The notes: generated by a model not told the origin, from the letters alone. Positions 1,150 through 60,028 are shown, counted from the first letter of the stretch. The stretch: DNA of 64,000 nucleotides from Sphingobacteriales bacterium (GCA_013298995.1 JAAFJW010000001.1:1047-65046); one strand, 5' to 3'. Numbers and translations: made by a program.

Positions 1150-4100
1150 TTATAAGGTTAAATTAACACCAAAAGTTACTCTTTTCAAGGAAGGGTATTG
1201 TGCACCCTCAACTGTAGCGTTAGAGTTTGTTGGGTTGTTAATTGTTGAAACTTCCGGGTCCCAGCCTTGAAACTTAAACTTGGTGTATAAGTTTTGGCCT
1301 TGTATAAAAAATCTAAGTCCTTGAATTTTTATTTTAGTAAGCACACTATTGGGTAAACTGTAGGCTAACTGTATATTTTTTAACCTAAAAAAATCTCCTT
1401 TCTCTAAAAACCTTGTTGTAAAACGCCTTGTCGACTCCGTTATTCTGGGAAAATCGGTTATTTGCCCTTCTGTAGTCCAAGCATTTAACCCATTTGCAGC
1501 AAACGCATAATCAGCTAAAATATTCCATTCTAAATTGTAACGAGCTTTGTTAAAGATATAATTGCCACCGCTAAGAATACCCAGTGCGGTAAGCTCTATG
1601 CCTTTGTAACCCAACATTAAATTTATACCTGCATTGTGTGGGGCATCACTCGTACCTAAAATAACTTTGTTGTTAGCACTATAAGCCCCCAACTGGCCTG
1701 TGGCTGGATTTACAAATTGCGAATTACCTGTTTTAGGATCTACGCCAGCAAACTGTACCAAATAAAAACTATTTACTGGGCTACCTACTTGCAAAGCTTG
1801 GTATTCGCTTCGTGGGGTTAAAAGTAAAGGTTGGTCGGTGTCTAAAGATTTAATCGTGTTTTTGTTAAACGAATAATTTGCGCCAATGCTCCATTTAAAA
1901 TCTTTGGTGTTAATTAGCTTAAAATCAACTGTGGTTTCTATCCCTCGGTTTTGTAAATTGCCCGCATTGGCCGTAAAAGCAGCACCTGCACTATTAATGG
2001 ATGGTACATTAGGTTCGAAATACAAGCCTTTGGTATTGTTGTTATACCATTCAAAGCTTGTACGTATTCGTCCCTTAAAAAACTCGGCATCAATACCAAT
2101 ATTGGTCATTTCTTTTAATTCCCATTTTAAGTTTGGGTTACCCAACCTGCCAATTTGTAAGGTACCTAAACCGCCATAAGTACCCCCAATATATTGTGGC
2201 GAATAGGGGAATTGGCCTATGCCCCCTTGGTTGGCCGCATTACCATAACTTGCTTTTATTTTAGCTAAAGAAACAAAGTTGATGTTTTTAAAAAAATCTT
2301 CATCGCTTAATATCCAACTGGCACCTACCGAACCATAACTAACGTAACGGTTTGCAGGACTTAAACGCGATGAACCATCATTACGACCAGTTAAGGATAA
2401 AAAGTACCTGTTTTTATATGAGTAAGCCACATCTCCAAAAAAAGAAGCCACCGCATTGTTAACTGGAAAACCACCACCTACGCTAGGGATAAAGCCATTT
2501 GCAGCTGTACCCTCTACCAAACCCGTTTCGTTTTTAAACGGTAATAATAAACCATAGCCTGTAAAATTAAAGCTACGGCCTTGGTTTCTAACATATTCAT
2601 AATAAACAGAAGTGTTTAGTTTGTGATTTCCCTCGGCATCTAAATTGGTTTTATAATTTAAACTATTGGTAATGGTATAAGAAAAACGTCTATCTAAGGC
2701 TCGCTCTACTTCCCCATTTAGCCTAAATAGTTTTCCAAACCTAATACCGTTTTGAGTTGCCGTTTGCGAACCGTTGGGTATTAAATTAAAATCTTCAATT
2801 TGAGAGTAATCGCCCCCCATATTAATTTTGTAGCTTAAGTTTTTTATCCAAGGCAGTTTATAATCTAAAAAAACATTACCCGTACTTTTAAGTTGCCATC
2901 TTTGTGATATGTTAACCGTTAATGCTTCTACAGGATTTACCCAATCGCCAAATAATAAAGATTCAGTTGAATTTCCAAAAAAAGTTTTGCCATCGTCTTG
3001 ATAAACAGGCTCGTAAGGTAAAGACCAAAGTACATTATTTAACGGCGAGCCTATACCTTGATTACCCTCTCTTGTACCATTATAATCAGACCAACCGCCC
3101 GATAAATTAGTACCAATGGTTAAATTTTTATCGGTGTGCCTAATGTTTAACCTACCATTGTATTTTTTAATGCCCGTATTTATGGTAATACCGTCTTCGT
3201 TATAATAACCCAAGGAAGTGTAAAATGTGGTTTTATCGCTACCGCCCGATAAGGCTAATTGGTGGGATTGTGTTGCCCCTTTTCTAAATACATAATCGTT
3301 CCAGTTGGTGTTAATTTTCCCCAGTCGCAAATAATCTTCATCAGTACGATTTGGATATGATTTTGCAATGTTTTTTTCAAAAAATAATTTCTCAGATGTA
3401 TTCATTACTTTCAATTGGTTTTCGGGTAAGCGAGACATACCCGTTTGCCCATCGTAAGTAATTTTTAATTTACCTGTTTTACCTTGTTTAGAAGTAATTA
3501 CAATAACCCCATTACTACCTCTTGAGCCATAAATGGAGGTAGAAGAAGCATCTTTTAAAATGGTAACACTTTCAAAATCGTTTTGGTTCATCGTACTAAA
3601 ATCCCCACCCAATATCTCAATACCATCTAATATATAAAGCGGTGCACTAGAGCCATTTATAGAGCCTTGCCCACGTATAATCACATCGGCACTGCGGCCA
3701 GGTTGCCCCGAGCCTGTTTTAACGTTTAAACCTGCGGCTTGGCCTTGCAACAATTGATCGAACGAGGCATTAGGTTGCCCCATAGCACTTTCTATGGATA
3801 CTTGTGAAGCCGAACCTGTAAAATCTCTTTTAGATTTTGTGGCATAACCTGTAACAATTACTTCGCTAAGCGATTTGTTATCTTTCTGTAAAACTAGGTT
3901 TAATACTTCGTTTTTTGTGGAAACCTCCAAAGTGATATATCCTAAATACGATAAAATTAAAGTAGCATTATCGCCGTTTACCTTAATGGTAAATTTACCA
4001 TCGGCATTGGTTTGTGTACCGCTGGTGCTACCTTTTACCTTTACGCTTGCGCCTGGTATGGGTAAGCCGTCATCGTTTGCGGTTACCGTACCGCTAACTG

Positions 4101-22470: not shown

Positions 22471-22788
22471 ATGAACCAAGCCCAAATATACCAACAAATT
22501 AAAGCCACAGTATATGGGTATTTACCCAATAGCAAGGTGCTACTATTTGGCTCACGAGCAAGGTTAGATTTTAACCCAAACAGCGATTACGATATTTTGG
22601 TGGTAACCCCAAATGCAATTGCCCCAAAAGAAAAAATGAATTTAGAAAGTGCCATAAGCAAGCAATTAGTTTATTTAATAAAAGCACCTTTTGATGTATT
22701 GTTGCACAGCCAAAAAGAAATTGATTTAAAGAAAAACTCAAACGGTTTCATAGTTTTTCACGCTTTAAAAGATGCTATTGAATTATGA
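22471..22788 (+). CDS. Nucleotidyltransferase (MNT-type, partner of HEPN)
   Basis: 105 aa. Pol-beta-like motif LFGSRARLDFNPNSDYDILVV. Followed by an overlapping HEPN start (ATGA). Confidence 0.75.
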   Translation: MNQAQIYQQIKATVYGYLPNSKVLLFGSRARLDFNPNSDYDILVVTPNAIAPKEKMNLESAISKQLVYLIKAPFDVLLHSQKEIDLKKNSNGFIVFHALKDAIEL

Positions 22789-22895
22789 CAGATAGCGATA
22801 AAGAAGTACTTTTACAATGGTTGCAAAAAGCCGAACACGATTTAATTGCCGCCGAAATTAATATATTTACAAAAAACACTAAATTTGTAAATTAA
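22785..22895 (+). pseudogene. HEPN-domain toxin 5' stub (36 codons), present twice
   Basis: MTDSDKEVLLQWLQKAEHDLIAAEINIF then TKNTKFVN*. The second copy starts at 22960 within the tandem duplication. Confidence 0.65.
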
Positions 22896-23054
22896 AATCT
22901 AAATTTTATGTTAGCACTTAGAGGAACATACCAAACGCCTTAAAAGATGCTATTGAATTATGACAGATAGCGATAAAGAAGTTATTTTACAATGGTTGCA
23001 AAAAGCCGAACACGATTTAATTGCCGCCGAAATTAATATATTTACAAAAAACAC

Positions 23055-23062
23055 TAAATTTG
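23055..23062 (+). promoter_or_regulatory. Bacteroidota -7 box (TAAATTTG) inside the palindrome TTTACAAA-N10-TTTGTAAA
   Basis: 21 bp upstream of ATG 23083. The same motif is at 22880-22887 in the duplicated copy. Confidence 0.4.
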
Positions 23063-23082
23063 TAAATTAAAATCTAAATTTT

Positions 23083-23313
23083 ATGTTAGCACTTAGAGGA
23101 ACATACCAAAACGGGAATATCGAACTTGAAAAAAAAGTAGAAACCACTCAAAAAATGGAAGTAATTGTTACATTTTTGGAAGAGCCTATAAAAAAACGAA
23201 GTAAAGAAGAATTTTTAGAATTGTTAAAAAATGGACCTATAATGTCGGATGAACAATACCAAGACTATTTACTAAGCAGAAAAATGTGGAATACAAACGA
23301 AATAAGTGAATGA
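23083..23313 (+). CDS. Putative antitoxin of the downstream PIN toxin
   Basis: 76 aa. The N-terminus LRGTYQNGNIELEKKV resembles small beta-barrel antitoxins. The stop overlaps the vapC ATG (ATGA). Confidence 0.5.
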   Translation: MLALRGTYQNGNIELEKKVETTQKMEVIVTFLEEPIKKRSKEEFLELLKNGPIMSDEQYQDYLLSRKMWNTNEISE

Positions 23314-23690
23314 TACTTTTAGATACAAGCATTTTAATTGATTTTTACAGAAAGTCTAATAAAGAAAATTCACACCTTGTAAAACTAAACAGTACATACG
23401 ATATTATTTTTGCATCACAAATAACTTTTTTTGAAATTTATATAGGTTCTAATCAACAACAAAAAAATTTTTGGGATAATGTATTTAACCAAATCACAGT
23501 TTTAGATTTTGATTTCAAGGCAACGAGTTCAGCTGTACAGATTTACAAACAACTAAAAGCTCAAAATAAACTTATCGAAACGGCCGACATTTTTATTGCC
23601 GCAACAGCAATTGCTAACAACCTATCGTTAGCAACCTTAAACACAAAACATTTCAATAGGATTGAGAATCTTAAAACGGTTAGTTTATAA
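23310..23690 (+). CDS. vapC: PIN-domain toxin (VapC-like)
   Basis: 126 aa. MILLDTSILIDFY (first acidic residue), FFEIY, IETADIFIAATA and ATLNTKHF are typical of VapC. Confidence 0.8.
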   Translation: MILLDTSILIDFYRKSNKENSHLVKLNSTYDIIFASQITFFEIYIGSNQQQKNFWDNVFNQITVLDFDFKATSSAVQIYKQLKAQNKLIETADIFIAATAIANNLSLATLNTKHFNRIENLKTVSL

Positions 23691-39116: not shown

Positions 39117-39210
39117 GTCACTCTGAACGAAGTGAAGAGTCTCAAAGAGCGTATGGTTAGACTTTTCACTTCGTTCAGAGTAACAAATCAGAGTGACAAA
39201 TCAGAATAGC
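39117..39210. repeat. Hairpin/13-mer element, copy 1 (solo)
   Basis: Arms GTCACTCTGAACGAAGTGAAGAGTC (39117-39141) and GACTTTTCACTTCGTTCAGAGTAAC (39160-39184). Followed by degenerate units AAATCAGAGTGACAAATCAGAATAGC. Confidence 0.85.
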
Positions 39211-40863: not shown

Positions 40864-40881
40864 GATAAATTTCATACAAAA

Positions 40882-41001
40882 TATGGTTCGCTTTGTTACA
40901 AATAATCACTAAAATATGGTTCGCTTTGTTACAAAATAACTCCATATTATGGTTCGCTTTGTTACAAAAAAACACAAAATTATGGTTCGCTTTGTTACAA
41001 A
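40882..41001 (+). repeat. Four tandem 33-bp units (21-bp conserved core + 12-bp variable spacer)
   Basis: Cores start at 40882, 40915, 40948 and 40981, a period of exactly 33. The core is TATGGTTCGCTTTGTTACAAA. Confidence 0.9.
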
Positions 41002-41005
41002 TTTT

Positions 41006-43201: not shown

Positions 43202-43281
43202 ACTCTTCACTGCGTTCAGAGTGACAAGAGGGCGTTCAGAGTGACAGGCAGCGTTCAGAGTGAAAAGGGCATTCAAAGTAA
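43201..43281. repeat. Second copy of the hairpin right arm plus an array of CGTTCAGAGTGA units
   Basis: GACTCTTCACTGCGTTCAGAGTGAC, then units at 43233-43245 and 43252-43264, and a degenerate CATTCAAAGTAA. Confidence 0.9.
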
Positions 43282-44139: not shown

Positions 44140-44340
44140 TAAGAGTGCTCCAATTGGAGATGTAAATACGCTTTCAAATAATATTAAATATTATTTGAAC
44201 AGCCCTGCTGGGTTGCTAAAAACAAAAATTGCGACAAGCAACTTAGCTAAAAATGAGTTAAACAGGAAACCCGAAAGCAAAAAGTTTCTAAGTATGATAA
44301 ACGGCATTACGAGTAACCCTGCTACACTGATTTGTTACTC
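44140..44340 (+). pseudogene. GT4 tail remnant (tail C)
   Basis: ...SAPIGDVNTLSNNIKYYLNSPAGLLKTKIATSNLAKNELNRKPESKKFLSMING... runs without its own stop into hairpin copy 3. It is part of the track ORF 44087..44356. Confidence 0.55.
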
Positions 44341-44473
44341 TGGTTTGTCACTCTGAACGAAGTGAAGAGTCTCATAAGAGCGTATGGTTAGACTCTTCAC
44401 TTCGTTCAGAGTGACAAGGGGGCGTTCAGAGTGACAGGCAGCGTTCAGAGTAACAAGGAGCGTTCAGAGTTAC
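44325..44473. repeat. Hairpin/13-mer element, copy 3 (unoccupied site)
   Basis: Inverse units TGATTTGTTACTCTGGTTT, then hairpin 44347-44415. Units CGTTCAGAGTGAC (44423), CGTTCAGAGTAAC (44442) and CGTTCAGAGTTAC (44461) follow. Confidence 0.9.
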
Positions 44474-44531
44474 AATAAAACAATCAGCGTTACAAAAAGC
44501 ATCAAATAAAAGCATAAATAAAAGCCAATAA

Positions 44532-54186: not shown

Positions 54187-54381
54187 TTACTTTTTTTTGT
54201 TGGCTTTGTGGCGCATATCGGGTGTGCCATCTTTTTTTAGTGGGCCCTTGGCTTTTTTGTTTTCTTTAAAACGTTTGTCCAGTGTACCATCTTTTTTAAC
54301 TTGCAACTGGGCTGCACAAAGGGGTGTAAATGCGCCAAAGCTAATTATGGCAAGCATTAACATAGCAATTATTTTTTTCAT
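54187..54381 (-). CDS. Small secreted lysine-rich protein with two KKDGTxDxR repeats
   Basis: 64 aa. Signal peptide MKKIIAMLMLAIISFGAFTPLCA, then KKDGTLDKRFKENKKAKGPLKKDGTPDMRHKANKKK. Confidence 0.5.
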   Translation of the reverse strand: MKKIIAMLMLAIISFGAFTPLCAAQLQVKKDGTLDKRFKENKKAKGPLKKDGTPDMRHKANKKK

Positions 54382-54442: not shown

Positions 54443-55564
54443 TTAATCTGCCAATATCCTGTATAGTTCTAAATTTAGGTAATAATGATTGCCCTGCATG
54501 GTACGGCGTTCTAAAATACCCATTTGTACCAATTGGGTTAAGTATTTTTTAGCGGTATTTTCGGCATATAGCTTTTGTTCGGTAAAATATTTTACGCGAC
54601 TAAATGGTTGGGTAAAAATGGTATTCACCAATGATTCGGGTCGGCTAATTTTGGTTTTAGAAATAATTGCTTGTAGTATGGCATCTTTTGCAGCAATAAT
54701 ATCATTAATTTTATGGTAAGTTAAATTAGATGTAACCTCCACAGCTTTAAGCATGTAAATTATCCATGTTTTCCAATCGCCACGCTGGGTTACACCCATT
54801 AAGCTACTGTAATAATCGTCTTTATTATCCATAATGTATTTGCTCAAAAACAAAATGGGGTAATCTAATAAACCCTTTTTAGTAAGATAATGGATATTAA
54901 AAATTCTTCCTGTTCGGCCATTGCCATCTCTAAAAGGATGTATAGCCTCAAACTGAAAATGCCCTATTGCCATTTTCAAAACAGCATCAACCTTATATTT
55001 TTTATCATCATTTAGGTATTGAAGCAGGTTTTGTAGTTTTTTTTCTATAATCCCAAGCCCTCGTGGTGGCGTATAAACCGCTTTACCAGCATTAGGGCCA
55101 GTACCACCTTGGCGTATGTAGGTTTGTGCTACAACAGGCCTAATACCATCGTTCGTTTGGTTTACTTGTTGGTATATAAGTTGGATATATTGTTCGTCAA
55201 AGGCATCTTTATCTTTTAAATAATCGTAACCCTGCCATAAAGCTTCACGGTAACGTAATATTTCTTTAGGTGCACCTTGTATTATTTCCTCGGGTTGTTC
55301 GCAAAATGCTTTGTAAAGCTCATCATCGGTGGTAAAAATATTTTCTATTGCGCTTGATGCTTTGGCCTCTTGTAAACTTATCGAGTTAATTAACATCCCC
55401 TGATTTGGTATGGCAATGCTGCGCCCCTGTAATTTACCCAAAGCTACTTTTGCATTAGCCAAATGTTCGTAAATTTCTACTGTTTTAAATAAACTATCGT
55501 CGATGGGTAAATCGGGCAAGCCGTTCCAAGGAATATTTCTGTCAGGATTTATTGTATATACCAT
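54443..55564 (-). CDS. Fic-family protein (AMPylase-type) with C-terminal winged-helix
   Basis: 373 aa. Core motif HPFRDGNGRTGR. N-terminal inhibitory-helix motif SSAIEN, which fits (S/T)xxxE(G/N). Confidence 0.85.
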   Translation of the reverse strand: MVYTINPDRNIPWNGLPDLPIDDSLFKTVEIYEHLANAKVALGKLQGRSIAIPNQGMLINSISLQEAKASSAIENIFTTDDELYKAFCEQPEEIIQGAPKEILRYREALWQGYDYLKDKDAFDEQYIQLIYQQVNQTNDGIRPVVAQTYIRQGGTGPNAGKAVYTPPRGLGIIEKKLQNLLQYLNDDKKYKVDAVLKMAIGHFQFEAIHPFRDGNGRTGRIFNIHYLTKKGLLDYPILFLSKYIMDNKDDYYSSLMGVTQRGDWKTWIIYMLKAVEVTSNLTYHKINDIIAAKDAILQAIISKTKISRPESLVNTIFTQPFSRVKYFTEQKLYAENTAKKYLTQLVQMGILERRTMQGNHYYLNLELYRILAD

Positions 55565-55608
55565 AGCTCTACACGTTATTCGATAACGCTAAATTATTTT
55601 TCGAAAAA

Positions 55609-55616
55609 CAAATGTA
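55609..55616 (-). promoter_or_regulatory. Bacteroidota -7 box (TACATTTG on the minus strand) for fic
   Basis: About 45 bp upstream of ATG 55564, directly abutting the first 71-bp repeat unit. Confidence 0.4.
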
Positions 55617-55620
55617 AGCA

Positions 55621-56243
55621 AATAAATACAGTTAACATTAAAAAGTACTATATTTTAATGTTAGCTAAGATTTTGGCATCAAACAGAAAGGAATAAATGT
55701 AGCTAAAATTAAAAAGTACTATATTTTAATGTTAGCTAAGATTTTGGCATCAAACAGAAAGGAATAAATGCAGCTAACATTGAAAAGTACTATATTTTAA
55801 TGTTAGATAAGATTTTGGCATCAAACAGAAAGGAATAAATGCAGCTAGCATTAAAAAGTACCATATTTTAATGTTAGATAAGATTTTGGCATCAAACACA
55901 ACAGCTAGCATTAAAAAGTACTATATTTTAATGTTAGATAAGATTTTGGCATCAAACAGAAAGGAATAAATACAGCTAGCATTAAAAAGTATTATATTTT
56001 AATGTTAGCTAAGATTTTGACATCAAACAGAAAGGAATAAATACATATAACATTAAAAAGCACTATATTTTAATGTTAGCTAAGATTTTGACATCAAACA
56101 GAAAGAAATAAATGCAGCTAACATTAAAAAGTGCTATATTTTAATGTTAGCTAAGATTTTGACATCAAACAGAAAGGAATAAATACAGCTAGCATTAAAA
56201 AGTGTTATATTTTAATGTTAGCTAAGATTTTGACATCAAACAC
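55621..56243. repeat. Tandem array of nine units (period 71 bp; one unit is 60 bp), each with a 14-bp-stem hairpin
   Basis: Hairpin anchors at 55629, 55700, 55771, 55842, 55902, 55973, 56044, 56115 and 56186. Unit consensus: AATAAATGCAGCTAACATTAAAAAGTACTATATTTTAATGTTAGCTAAGATTTTGGCATCAAACAGAAAGG. Confidence 0.95.
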
Positions 56244-56300
56244 ACCGTAAAACTATAAACAAAGCGTATAATAAAAGGGGGGTAAGAAATTACCTTTTCT

Positions 56301-56337
56301 AAAAACAAAAAAGCACCCTAGAAAATCTAAGGTGCTT
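56301..56337 (-). terminator. Intrinsic terminator downstream of tRNA-Val
   Basis: The minus strand reads AAGCACC-loop-GGTGCTT followed by TTTTTGTTTTT. Confidence 0.55.
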
Positions 56338-56415
56338 TGGTGGGAGATACTGGGTTCGAACCAGTGACCCCCTGCTTGTAAGGCAGGTGCTCTGAACCAG
56401 CTGAGCTAATCTCCC
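56338..56415 (-). tRNA. tRNA-Val (anticodon TAC), CCA encoded
   Basis: Hand-folded cloverleaf: acceptor GGGAGAT/ATCTCCC, D stem GCTC/GAGC, anticodon stem CCTGC/GCAGG with loop CTTACAA, T arm ACTGG-TTCGAAC-CCAGT, discriminator A plus CCA. Confidence 0.9.
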
Positions 56416-59867: not shown

Positions 59868-59927
59868 ATTAATTTGCTTTAGAGGGTTGTTGTTGCTCAA
59901 TGATTTTTGTTTTTTAGGTGCGTTAAC

Positions 59928-60028
59928 GATTGCAACGGCATCCTTTTTATCCATAGCCCCCATCTTGGGCTGTTGGCAAATGGGGGCTATGGATAAAAAG
60001 ATATAGTGCAAAGCGTGTTAAAACGCCC
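59928..60028. repeat. GC-rich nested-palindrome element, copy B
   Basis: GTGCGTTAACGAT...CATCCTTTTTATCCATAGCCCCCA / TGGGGGCTATGGATAAAAAGATA...AAGCGTGTTAAAACGCCC. The outer frame is shared with 15606-15731. Confidence 0.8.

Follow-up and report, generated by a model that had tools for sequence, protein, structure and literature searches.

A ninefold tandem array upstream of a SoFic-type fic gene in a Sphingobacteriales genome: probable amplification of an autoregulatory promoter-operator module

Two Fic proteins that act on their own promoters are the closest described relatives of the system reported here. Yersinia pseudotuberculosis CccR, a class II Fic protein with a C-terminal HTH domain, is a dimeric autorepressor whose footprint comprises two 10-bp inverted repeats (AGATAATCAT-N26-ATGATAATCT) over its own -35/-10 elements (PMC9755527). 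In Shewanella oneidensis, dimeric SoFic binds its own promoter in a sequence-specific manner, best on the 100 bp adjoining the ATG, whereas the monomer does not; AMPylation of EF-Tu is likewise carried out by the dimer, and the preprint defines no binding site (bioRxiv 10.64898/2026.07.09.737422). Wild-type Sofic is toxic, and its cloning needed three lac operators (PMC12249575). Autoregulation through repeats in the gene's own promoter is therefore already known as a property of the Fic-wHTH family. In toxin-antitoxin operators such as that of AbiEi, likewise, a toxic gene is autorepressed via several inverted promoter repeats whose sites act cooperatively (PMC7319586), and synthetic LacI decoy operator arrays raise the expression of an autorepressed gene, the free repressor going down and total protein going up (PMC7505660).

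Here we analysed a 64,000-nucleotide stretch of DNA from a Sphingobacteriales bacterium, called the window throughout, in which a fic gene is preceded by a long tandem array (Table 1). The fic product contains the Pfam domains Fic_N, Fic and SoFic-like_C, gives a full-length match to the PADLOC SoFic defence model (E=1.3e-97) and aligns with the solved SoFic structures PDB 3EQX/9TCH at E of about 1e-65, while its similarity to CccR (PDB 7XUX, E=9e-8) is weak and confined to the Fic core. It carries the N-terminal class II inhibitory motif SSAIEN and the active site HPFRDGNGRTGR. An AF2 model based on 43 homologs (pLDDT 82) predicts a canonical C-terminal winged helix of H-b-H-H-b-wing-b topology, in which helix 309-318, a strand and helix 324-329 are followed by the recognition helix at 335-347 (ENTAKKYLTQLVQ) and a strand-wing-strand. 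The gene beside the array encodes a class II Fic of the SoFic family whose C-terminal domain is of the winged-helix/HTH type.

Table 1. Positions of the fic gene, its promoter, the array and the neighbouring tRNA gene, counted from the first nucleotide of the window.
Feature	Position	Strand	Basis or remark
fic, 373 aa, SoFic-family class II Fic AMPylase	54443..55564	-	ORF
fic leader/start region, unique DNA	55565..55608	-	sequence; comparison with L151; half-site map
fic -7 box TACATTTG	55609..55616	-	45 nt upstream of fic ATG
Module array, n=9 (eight of 71 bp, one of 60 bp)	55621..56244	-	TRF, anchors, unit register
C> arm of unit 1, TTTTAATGTTAACT	55630..55643	-	
C> arm, further starts	55701, 55772, 55843, 55903, 55974, 56045, 56116, 56187		
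B< arm of unit 1, AGCTAACATTAAAA	55653..55666	-	
B< arm, further starts (each +13)	55724, 55795, 55866, 55926, 55997, 56068, 56139, 56210		
23-mer TTTTAATGTTAGCTAAGATTTTG, matches	55653, 55724, 55795, 55866, 55926, 55997, 56068, 56139, 56210		
A> half-site TTTGATGCC of unit 1	55675-55683	-	recurs at +71 steps; site A conserved across loci
-7-like box TCTGTTTG of unit 1, overlapping A>	55680-55687	-	
Short unit, 60 bp, with 11-bp deletion	55834..55893	-	unit register
tRNA-Val GC-rich intrinsic terminator	56310-56338	-	terminator scan
tRNA-Val(tac)	56338-56415	-	upstream of array, fic strand; neighbour, not module part

TRF reported 55621-56242 as a single strong tandem array with a period of 71, 8.9 copies, 90% matches and a score of 943. 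A scan of the window tolerating up to three mismatches gave nine matches to the anchor 23-mer TTTTAATGTTAGCTAAGATTTTG, each with at most one mismatch, and the head-to-tail units are stepped by 71, 71, 71, 60, 71, 71, 71 and 71 bp; in 100 shuffled sequences the 23-mer had no match. Both searches reproduced the nine tandem units that a first-pass annotation of this DNA had placed at 55621-56243 with the same spacings. It had also described the whole unit as repeated without unique spacers, which we confirmed, and a CRISPR array was rejected on the grounds that the entire 71-bp unit recurs at 90% identity with no unique spacers. The same annotation had let the array fill the space between the fic promoter and the tRNA-Val terminator; it does abut the fic -7 box, but about 66 bp of unique DNA precede the terminator. 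Homology of the units to the fic-proximal DNA, seen earlier as a resemblance to the sequence beside the true promoter, runs to the end of the true -7 box and stops exactly after TTTG, so that the repeated region is effectively 55609-56244. The sequence at the junction of the 60-bp unit (CAAACACAACAG) is similar to that with which the array ends distally (CAAACACACCG), a likeness suggestive of a block duplication. The period of 71 bp amounts to 6.8 helical turns, a non-integral number with no evident phasing logic. A micro-ORF on the + strand (GAAAGGAATAAATG, resembling a ribosome-binding site, then a 10-codon ORF) was rejected, its ATG being ATA in four units and a stop following in one.

Read in the sense of fic, each unit consists of a TCTGTTTG box overlapping the half-site A> (TTTGATGYC), the segment CAAAATCTT, the B< arm AGCTAACATTAAAA, a 9-nt spacer, the C> arm TTTTAATGTTAGCT and a 17-nt T-rich linker, or in compact form TCTGTTTG-ATGCCAAAATCTT-AGCTAACATTAAAA-N9-TTTTAATGTTAGCT-linker. 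The module thereby holds three half-sites, A>, B< (AACATTAAA) and C> (TTTAATGTT), each of about 10 bp and roughly two helical turns apart, with B< lying 21 bp after A> and C> 20 bp after B<. The hairpin noted at first pass is, on our reading of the sequence, the inverted B</C> half-site pair. The 14-bp stem attributed to every unit is perfect in unit 8 only, the 9-bp core being perfect in three units and the remaining units carrying one or two mismatches. The B< core AACATTAAA is identical in all nine units, A> reads TTTGATGCC in units 1-5 and TTTGATGTC in units 6-9, and the C> arm has one or two substitutions in 8/9 units. The right arm, taken as nearly invariant, is indeed identical in its core throughout; it carries one C/A polymorphism (units 3-5), and the conserved block is larger than the arm. 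This block, which starts with the TTTG in the -7-like box and extends over A> and the spacer to include B<, has 2 variable columns out of 36, against 12 of 35 in the rest of the unit with boundary effects removed and 19 of 35 without their removal (Fisher p = 0.003 to 5e-6). Divergence among the units is about 10%, and the substitutions are concentrated in C>, the spacer and the linker. Mismatches in the B:C pairs are skewed towards A.C in the fic sense, or G.U on the opposite strand (about 16 versus 5 independent events, p=0.03), a skew that would fit a strict B< site with A> and C> tolerating Y at two positions and would fit an antisense RNA stem equally well.

A consensus Bacteroidetes -7 box is present only at the fic-proximal position (TACATTTG) and is homologous to the -7-like boxes of the units. 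These read TCTGTTTG in seven units and TGTGTTTG in two, all without the A at position 2 of TAnnTTTG, which agrees with the earlier description of a box one mismatch from that consensus in every unit. From promoter studies in Bacteroides and Flavobacterium, an A at this position is reportedly important. A> overlaps the TAnnTTTG box and C> lies 17 nt upstream of the box, over the -33 region; inverted half-sites of about 10 bp overlap fic's own promoter elements. The fic leader contains a small palindrome, CGTTAT-N3-ATAACG, and the half-site map places no half-site copy within it. Head-to-tail units of tens of base pairs also make up the NsiR1 arrays of Nostocales, which are tandem small-RNA genes with a promoter-like box and a hairpin in each unit, and plasmid iterons, which are directly repeated protein-binding sites. 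The window array differs from the former in its off-consensus internal boxes, and from the latter in having no replication gene and in being built of inverted half-site sets rather than single direct repeats; an iteron reading was rejected on anatomy.

In a scan of about 185,000 species genomes, the 23-mer TTTTAATGTTAGCTAAGATTTTG was found in two places, both at a fic ortholog. A related Sphingobacteriales MAG (L010) has a syntenic locus whose contig ends in the array beside tRNA-Val and whose units are differently diverged. Sphingobacterium shayense (L011) has three 71-bp units directly upstream of the orthologous fic, with no tRNA nearby, and these have only the core TTTTAATGTTAGCTAAGATTTTGGC in common with the window units. 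Further loci were collected via the proteins of fic orthologs and from a metagenome scan, so that the set covers protein identities of 58-98% in Sphingobacterium, Pedobacter, Mucilaginibacter, Dyadobacter, Hymenobacter and MAGs. The module lies immediately upstream of fic in 15/15 ortholog loci examined, all in Bacteroidota, with a period of 70-73 bp. Its copy number is nine in the window versus two to four in relatives, one ortholog locus being cut by a contig end: there are two modules at L012, L013, L015 (Dyadobacter arcticus), L027, L137, L147 (Pedobacter cryoconitis), L148 (Hymenobacter canadensis), L152 and L154, three at L011, L031, L098 and L160, and four at L057. At three ortholog loci TRF did not report a tandem array, though half-site mapping shows the module there. 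Short-read assemblies that encode an identical or 98% identical Fic protein all stop inside the fic-proximal unit, the usual effect of a long tandem repeat on such assemblies.

The geometry is maintained across the orthologs, with A> 21-22 bp before B<, C> 19-20 bp after B< and B< recurring at 70-73 bp, and the spacers between half-sites are free in sequence and constant in length. Site A reads TTTGATGYC followed by AAAA across loci, and the GC-rich Hymenobacter still has ACATTAAA/TTTAATGT. As in the window, half-sites are placed on the -7 box and over the -33 region, and some copies precede the promoter, which would not transcribe them. The boxes between modules match the consensus promoter in the orthologs (TATATTTG, TACATTTG, TACCTTTG, TATCTTTG). 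Since the gene neighbourhood is different at every ortholog locus, the module and fic appear to travel as a self-contained pair. The window unit matches the Dyadobacter or Pedobacter module block for block, which argues that the 71-bp period is ancestral and that the window array is an amplified fic promoter-operator module.

We also mapped half-sites in the Shewanella SoFic promoter DNA from the preprint and found two modules of about 80 bp, each with ATGTCGAT half-sites in a > < > arrangement. The protein belongs to the same family as the window protein (E about 1e-65 over the full length) and its promoter likewise has repeated > < > modules, but the half-site sequence is another one, the period is about 80 instead of 71 bp, there are two modules instead of nine, and the promoter is of the sigma-70 type rather than the Bacteroidetes -33/-7 type; binding is demonstrated for Shewanella SoFic and predicted for the window protein. 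CccR shares with the window system a class II Fic toxin with a C-terminal HTH/wHTH domain and inverted half-sites of about 10 bp over its own promoter boxes, separated, as here, by a long spacer. It has one palindrome, in contrast to three half-sites per module at steps of about 20 bp in 71-bp repeats, ninefold; its half-site sequence differs, and its dimer is back-to-back, unlike that of SoFic. In AbiEi a separate antitoxin binds the DNA at two repeats, whereas in the window toxin and DNA-binding domain form one polypeptide and there are nine modules (PMC7319586).

The half-sites were then compared with the recognition helices of the encoded proteins. The helix reads [AVS]ENTA[KR]KYL in about 100 of 120 homologs, and at loci with a helix of the ENTA[KR]K type ACATTAAA is kept in 12/12 cases. 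One homolog of the 120, P0012, has the helix ALNTAIKYL, and at its locus (L154) A, B and C are all changed, to TTTGATATC, AATATCAAA and TTTGATATT, with the 71-bp geometry kept. Four proteins of the 120 carry AEKTARNYL; an altered site was predicted for this variant from the protein before the DNA was fetched, and the sites of P0086 (Mucilaginibacter sp. UYP25, L160) are indeed altered, its three modules reading TTTACCGTC, AACGGTAAA and TTTACCGTT at a period of 71 bp with no ACATTAAA site among them. As the common-helix loci keep ACATTAAA over 58-98% protein identity, the switch in site follows the helix and not overall divergence. Half-site sequence thus appears to track the recognition helix of the encoded Fic, with two independent switches. 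The switch also takes in site A, which is no part of the hairpin, and a simple stem-loop model does not require this. We regard the protein-DNA co-variation as the strongest indication that the sites are read as DNA by the Fic protein and not as RNA; it comes from two lineages, and a change of some other trans factor in those genomes may be an alternative source. The comparative evidence bears out two suggestions of the first-pass annotation, namely that the target of selection is the DNA of one arm and not an RNA stem, and that the array is a reiterated operator or promoter module controlling fic.

Taken together, we consider it probable that the array arose from the promoter-operator module through which the adjacent SoFic-type fic gene regulates itself, amplified in tandem to nine copies, with the upstream units as predicted operators that form a platform for SoFic dimers. 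By homology and protein-DNA co-variation, the winged-helix domain of a SoFic dimer would recognise the half-sites in double-stranded DNA, and SoFic would repress its own promoter through them. Unequal crossing-over may have expanded the module to nine copies, including one block duplication with an 11-bp deletion. The eight upstream units, which have good A> and B< sites and an off-consensus box, are most likely extra operators rather than promoters, because only the fic-proximal copy has a consensus -7 box. They would constitute a cis-linked platform or sink that binds many SoFic dimers. Such a platform could tighten or cooperatively stabilise repression of a toxic gene and, like the decoy sites of any autorepressor, would raise the total amount of DNA-bound SoFic at a given free concentration.

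The serious rival to this platform is that the module is a SoFic operator of which no more than the one or two copies nearest fic have any role, copies 3-9 being a neutral minisatellite with inherited good sites that arose by unequal crossing-over between two ancestral modules and has no effect on fic expression. We judge this unlikely, yet it deserves real weight: two to four copies suffice in relatives, the internal -7 boxes are off-consensus, the variants shared among units (GCC/GTC, TAGCT/TAGAT and the 60-bp junction) look like local and block duplications, and copy number is not reportable from short-read assemblies. It has to contend with a perfect B< core and an intact A> in 9/9 units despite a divergence of about 10%, with substitutions falling in the spacer, C> and the linker (p=0.003), and with the related MAG L010, which has an array in the same place with differently diverged units. 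Moreover, if an autorepressor binds its nine high-quality sites at all, they must have kinetic consequences (PMC7505660). The divergence of the units and the array in the related MAG also indicate that this is not a fresh slippage product. The earlier proposal of a hypervariable minisatellite therefore survives in part: a copy number of nine versus two to four is clearly the product of tandem duplication, though not of fresh slippage. The persistence of the array in L010 and the position-specific conservation at most suggest an adaptive role for copies 3-9.

It is tempting to speculate further that the array is a natural cis-linked sponge that stores poised, inactive, DNA-bound SoFic dimers beside their own gene, with phage-triggered release and copy number as a tuning knob, a possibility that we hold to be rather doubtful. 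Since the AMPylating form, the dimer, is also the DNA-binding form, a pool of DNA-bound toxin would be a poised one; nine modules could hold up to about 9-18 dimers, inactive while bound to DNA, and copy number would set both the pool size and the threshold of repression. A phage-induced change, such as DNA degradation, altered supercoiling or competition by phage DNA or protein, might then free the pool at once for abortive infection, and expansion or contraction of the array would be a heritable tuning knob of the defence system. Like synthetic LacI decoy arrays, the window array would be a cluster of repressor sites outside the promoter that shifts the balance between free and total repressor. 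Titration of the datA type, in which clustered sites titrate DnaA, serves replication control. Arrays of the LacI or datA type are synthetic or for replication control, unlike the window array beside a defence toxin, and we know of no natural cis-linked decoy array described for such a toxin.

Returning to the amplified operator, a role of the B:C hairpin in RNA, whether as a leader or attenuator, as a series of weak terminators against tRNA-Val read-through, as a tandem small-RNA array or as an antisense structure, is in our view very unlikely. The units do fold at -15 to -17 kcal/mol on either strand (z-scores -2.7 to -4.4), the second hairpin falls within the 5' leader in several orthologs, both arms change together at L057, L148, L154 and L160, B:C mismatches are skewed to G.U on the antisense strand, and tRNA-Val lies upstream on the fic strand. 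Against this, Rfam 15 gave no match over the array at the gathering score or at E<=1 save a chance mir-556 at E=0.14, and between orders the stems keep their sequence instead of covarying, a GC-rich genome included. Copies are situated over the -33 region and upstream of the promoter, site A switches with B and C from outside the hairpin, and which half-site a locus has goes with the recognition helix of the DNA-binding domain encoded next to it. The idea that the units are stacked weak terminators insulating fic, put forward at first pass, likewise finds no support: none of the nine passes a terminator scan that does find the tRNA-Val terminator, their stems have only 3-4 G-C pairs of 14, tRNA-Val has its own strong terminator, and modules also precede fic orthologs with no tRNA upstream or with a divergently transcribed upstream neighbour (L013, L015, L147), including places without a co-oriented gene upstream. 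Integration of an island at tRNA-Val was considered separately and rejected, as neither a repeat of the tRNA 3' end nor a GC break was found.

Less likely still is a stack of nine active promoters, one per unit, that boosts fic transcription once repression is lifted; it would be favoured by the units being homologous to the real promoter through the whole of its -7 box and by the consensus promoter boxes between the modules of orthologs, but a perfect box exists only at the proximal position, the conserved A at position 2 being absent from all eight internal boxes and from the distal one.

Metagenomes were scanned with the bare palindrome AACATTAAA-N10-12-TTTAATGTT, which gave at least 120 loci, four of them at fic among the matches listed. 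The others are mostly single AT-rich chance palindromes, expected at an estimated rate of about 1e-9 per position, and the scan is no test of exclusivity; it supplied the four extra fic loci and three pairs of modules at 71-72 bp without fic in the fetched flanks among the matches listed (L020, L074, L077). The pair is oriented towards a downstream gene at L074 and L077 and is flanked by convergent genes at L020. The sites are thus not strictly exclusive to fic, and the fic-less pairs could be further targets, remnants or mobile copies. Viral contig scans revealed no Fic relative, and the one palindrome match there (L136) is an unrelated long hairpin. That the array consists of sites for an unlinked DNA-binding protein, or is a MITE/REP-like element beside fic by chance, is extremely improbable, since the fic-less pairs and the different fic neighbourhood in every genome are outweighed by the absence of another unit copy in the 64-kb window (nhmmer and mismatch scan), the restriction of the 23-mer to two of about 185,000 species genomes, both at a fic ortholog, the lack of any BLAST match of two units to plasmids and phages and the co-variation of the sites with the Fic recognition helix; the first two of these counts speak against a dispersed REP/BIME or MITE-type repeat in general, and a REP reading was rejected on anatomy as well.

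What is new here is the three-site 71-bp module of the Bacteroidota branch, the correspondence between helix and site, and the ninefold amplification. SoFic is a widespread single-gene anti-phage and toxin system whose regulation is just beginning to be understood, its binding to its own promoter having been reported in 2026 without a defined site. The present comparison offers an operator grammar for the Bacteroidota branch, in the form of three half-sites at steps of about 20 bp within 71-bp modules, and a first correspondence between recognition helix and half-site, with three helix/site pairs. Should the extra copies prove to be just neutral, the locus would still illustrate cleanly the seeding of a minisatellite by a two-site operator, and the array would still explain the breaks in short-read assemblies beside such genes. 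Loci with two, three, four and nine operator modules form a natural series in which to see how multiplicity sets the level of an autorepressed toxin.

The approximately 71-bp module that precedes fic is also found away from this gene. Pairs of this module (2-2.3 units) with a spacing of 71-72 bp occur at three metagenome loci (L074, L077 and L020) whose fetched flanks contain no fic gene.

The fic ortholog of L154, a relative in which all three half-sites of the operator have changed along with the recognition helix of the Fic protein, lies just downstream of a tRNA gene, an arrangement shared with the window, where the neighbor is tRNA-Val. By eye, the L154 tRNA gene looks like tRNA-Phe. A search within the window for a repeated tRNA 3' end of the att type did not find one.

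On the other side of the window fic, the N-terminus of the 64-aa ORF resembles a signal peptide and its tail is rich in lysine; the ORF is annotated as a gene in independent assemblies too. The 47-aa AS1 antitoxin is reported to lie downstream of E. coli Sofic (PMC12249575); the window ORF is similar to it in position, with no evidence of homology, and PADLOC returned no match for the ORF.

Locations of features in the window and at other loci
Feature	Locus and position	Strand	Context
Module pair without fic	L074 6630-6730		upstream of TPR protein gene
Module pair without fic	L077 12341-12500		upstream of secreted hydrolase-like gene
Module pair without fic	L020 4600-4700		between convergent genes
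tRNA gene	L154 about 2220-2300		fic just downstream
64-aa ORF	window 54187-54381	-	directly downstream of fic
Palindrome	window 55572-55586		fic 5' leader
-7 box TAAGTTTG	L011 7051-7064		near fic ATG
-7 box TAAATTTG	L147 1490-1503		near fic ATG
-7 box TATATTTG	L160 1490-1503		near fic ATG
19-20 bp unit arrays	window 43212-43279, 44403-44475, 44327-44356 (inverted), 39175-39205		
175-bp tandem duplicate	window 22760-23110		3' end of nucleotidyltransferase-like gene (22471-22788)
VapB/VapC-like pair	window 23083-23690		directly after 175-bp duplication
33-bp repeat	window 40878-41002		
Flavo-1 RNA	window 59912-60024	+	overlaps 5' end of minus-strand ORF

The window holds several other repeats. 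A 19-20 bp unit, GCGTTCAGAGTGACAAG(R)G, is repeated in short arrays, each with AGACTCTTCAC ahead of it, and these arrays flank a ~1.1-kb element containing two small ORFs, one antitoxin-like and one PIN-like. The whole resembles a toxin-antitoxin island, or a cassette, whose boundary sequences are repeated. The two 175-bp copies are 98% identical, and the VapB/VapC-like pair that follows them is small. A 33-bp unit, AAAATATGGTTCGCTTTGTTACAAATAACACA, is present in 3.8 copies at 87% identity. Separately, the match to Flavo-1 RNA (RF01705) scores 52 bits, which exceeds the gathering score.

The 5' leader of the window fic contains a small palindrome, CGTTAT-N3-ATAACG, with the -7 box on one side and the ATG on the other; it is retained, with a different center, in the 98% relative L151. 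In three orthologs (L011, L147 and L160), a consensus -7 box ends just 3 nt upstream of the fic ATG, a placement that implies that the fic mRNAs of these species would be leaderless or near-leaderless.
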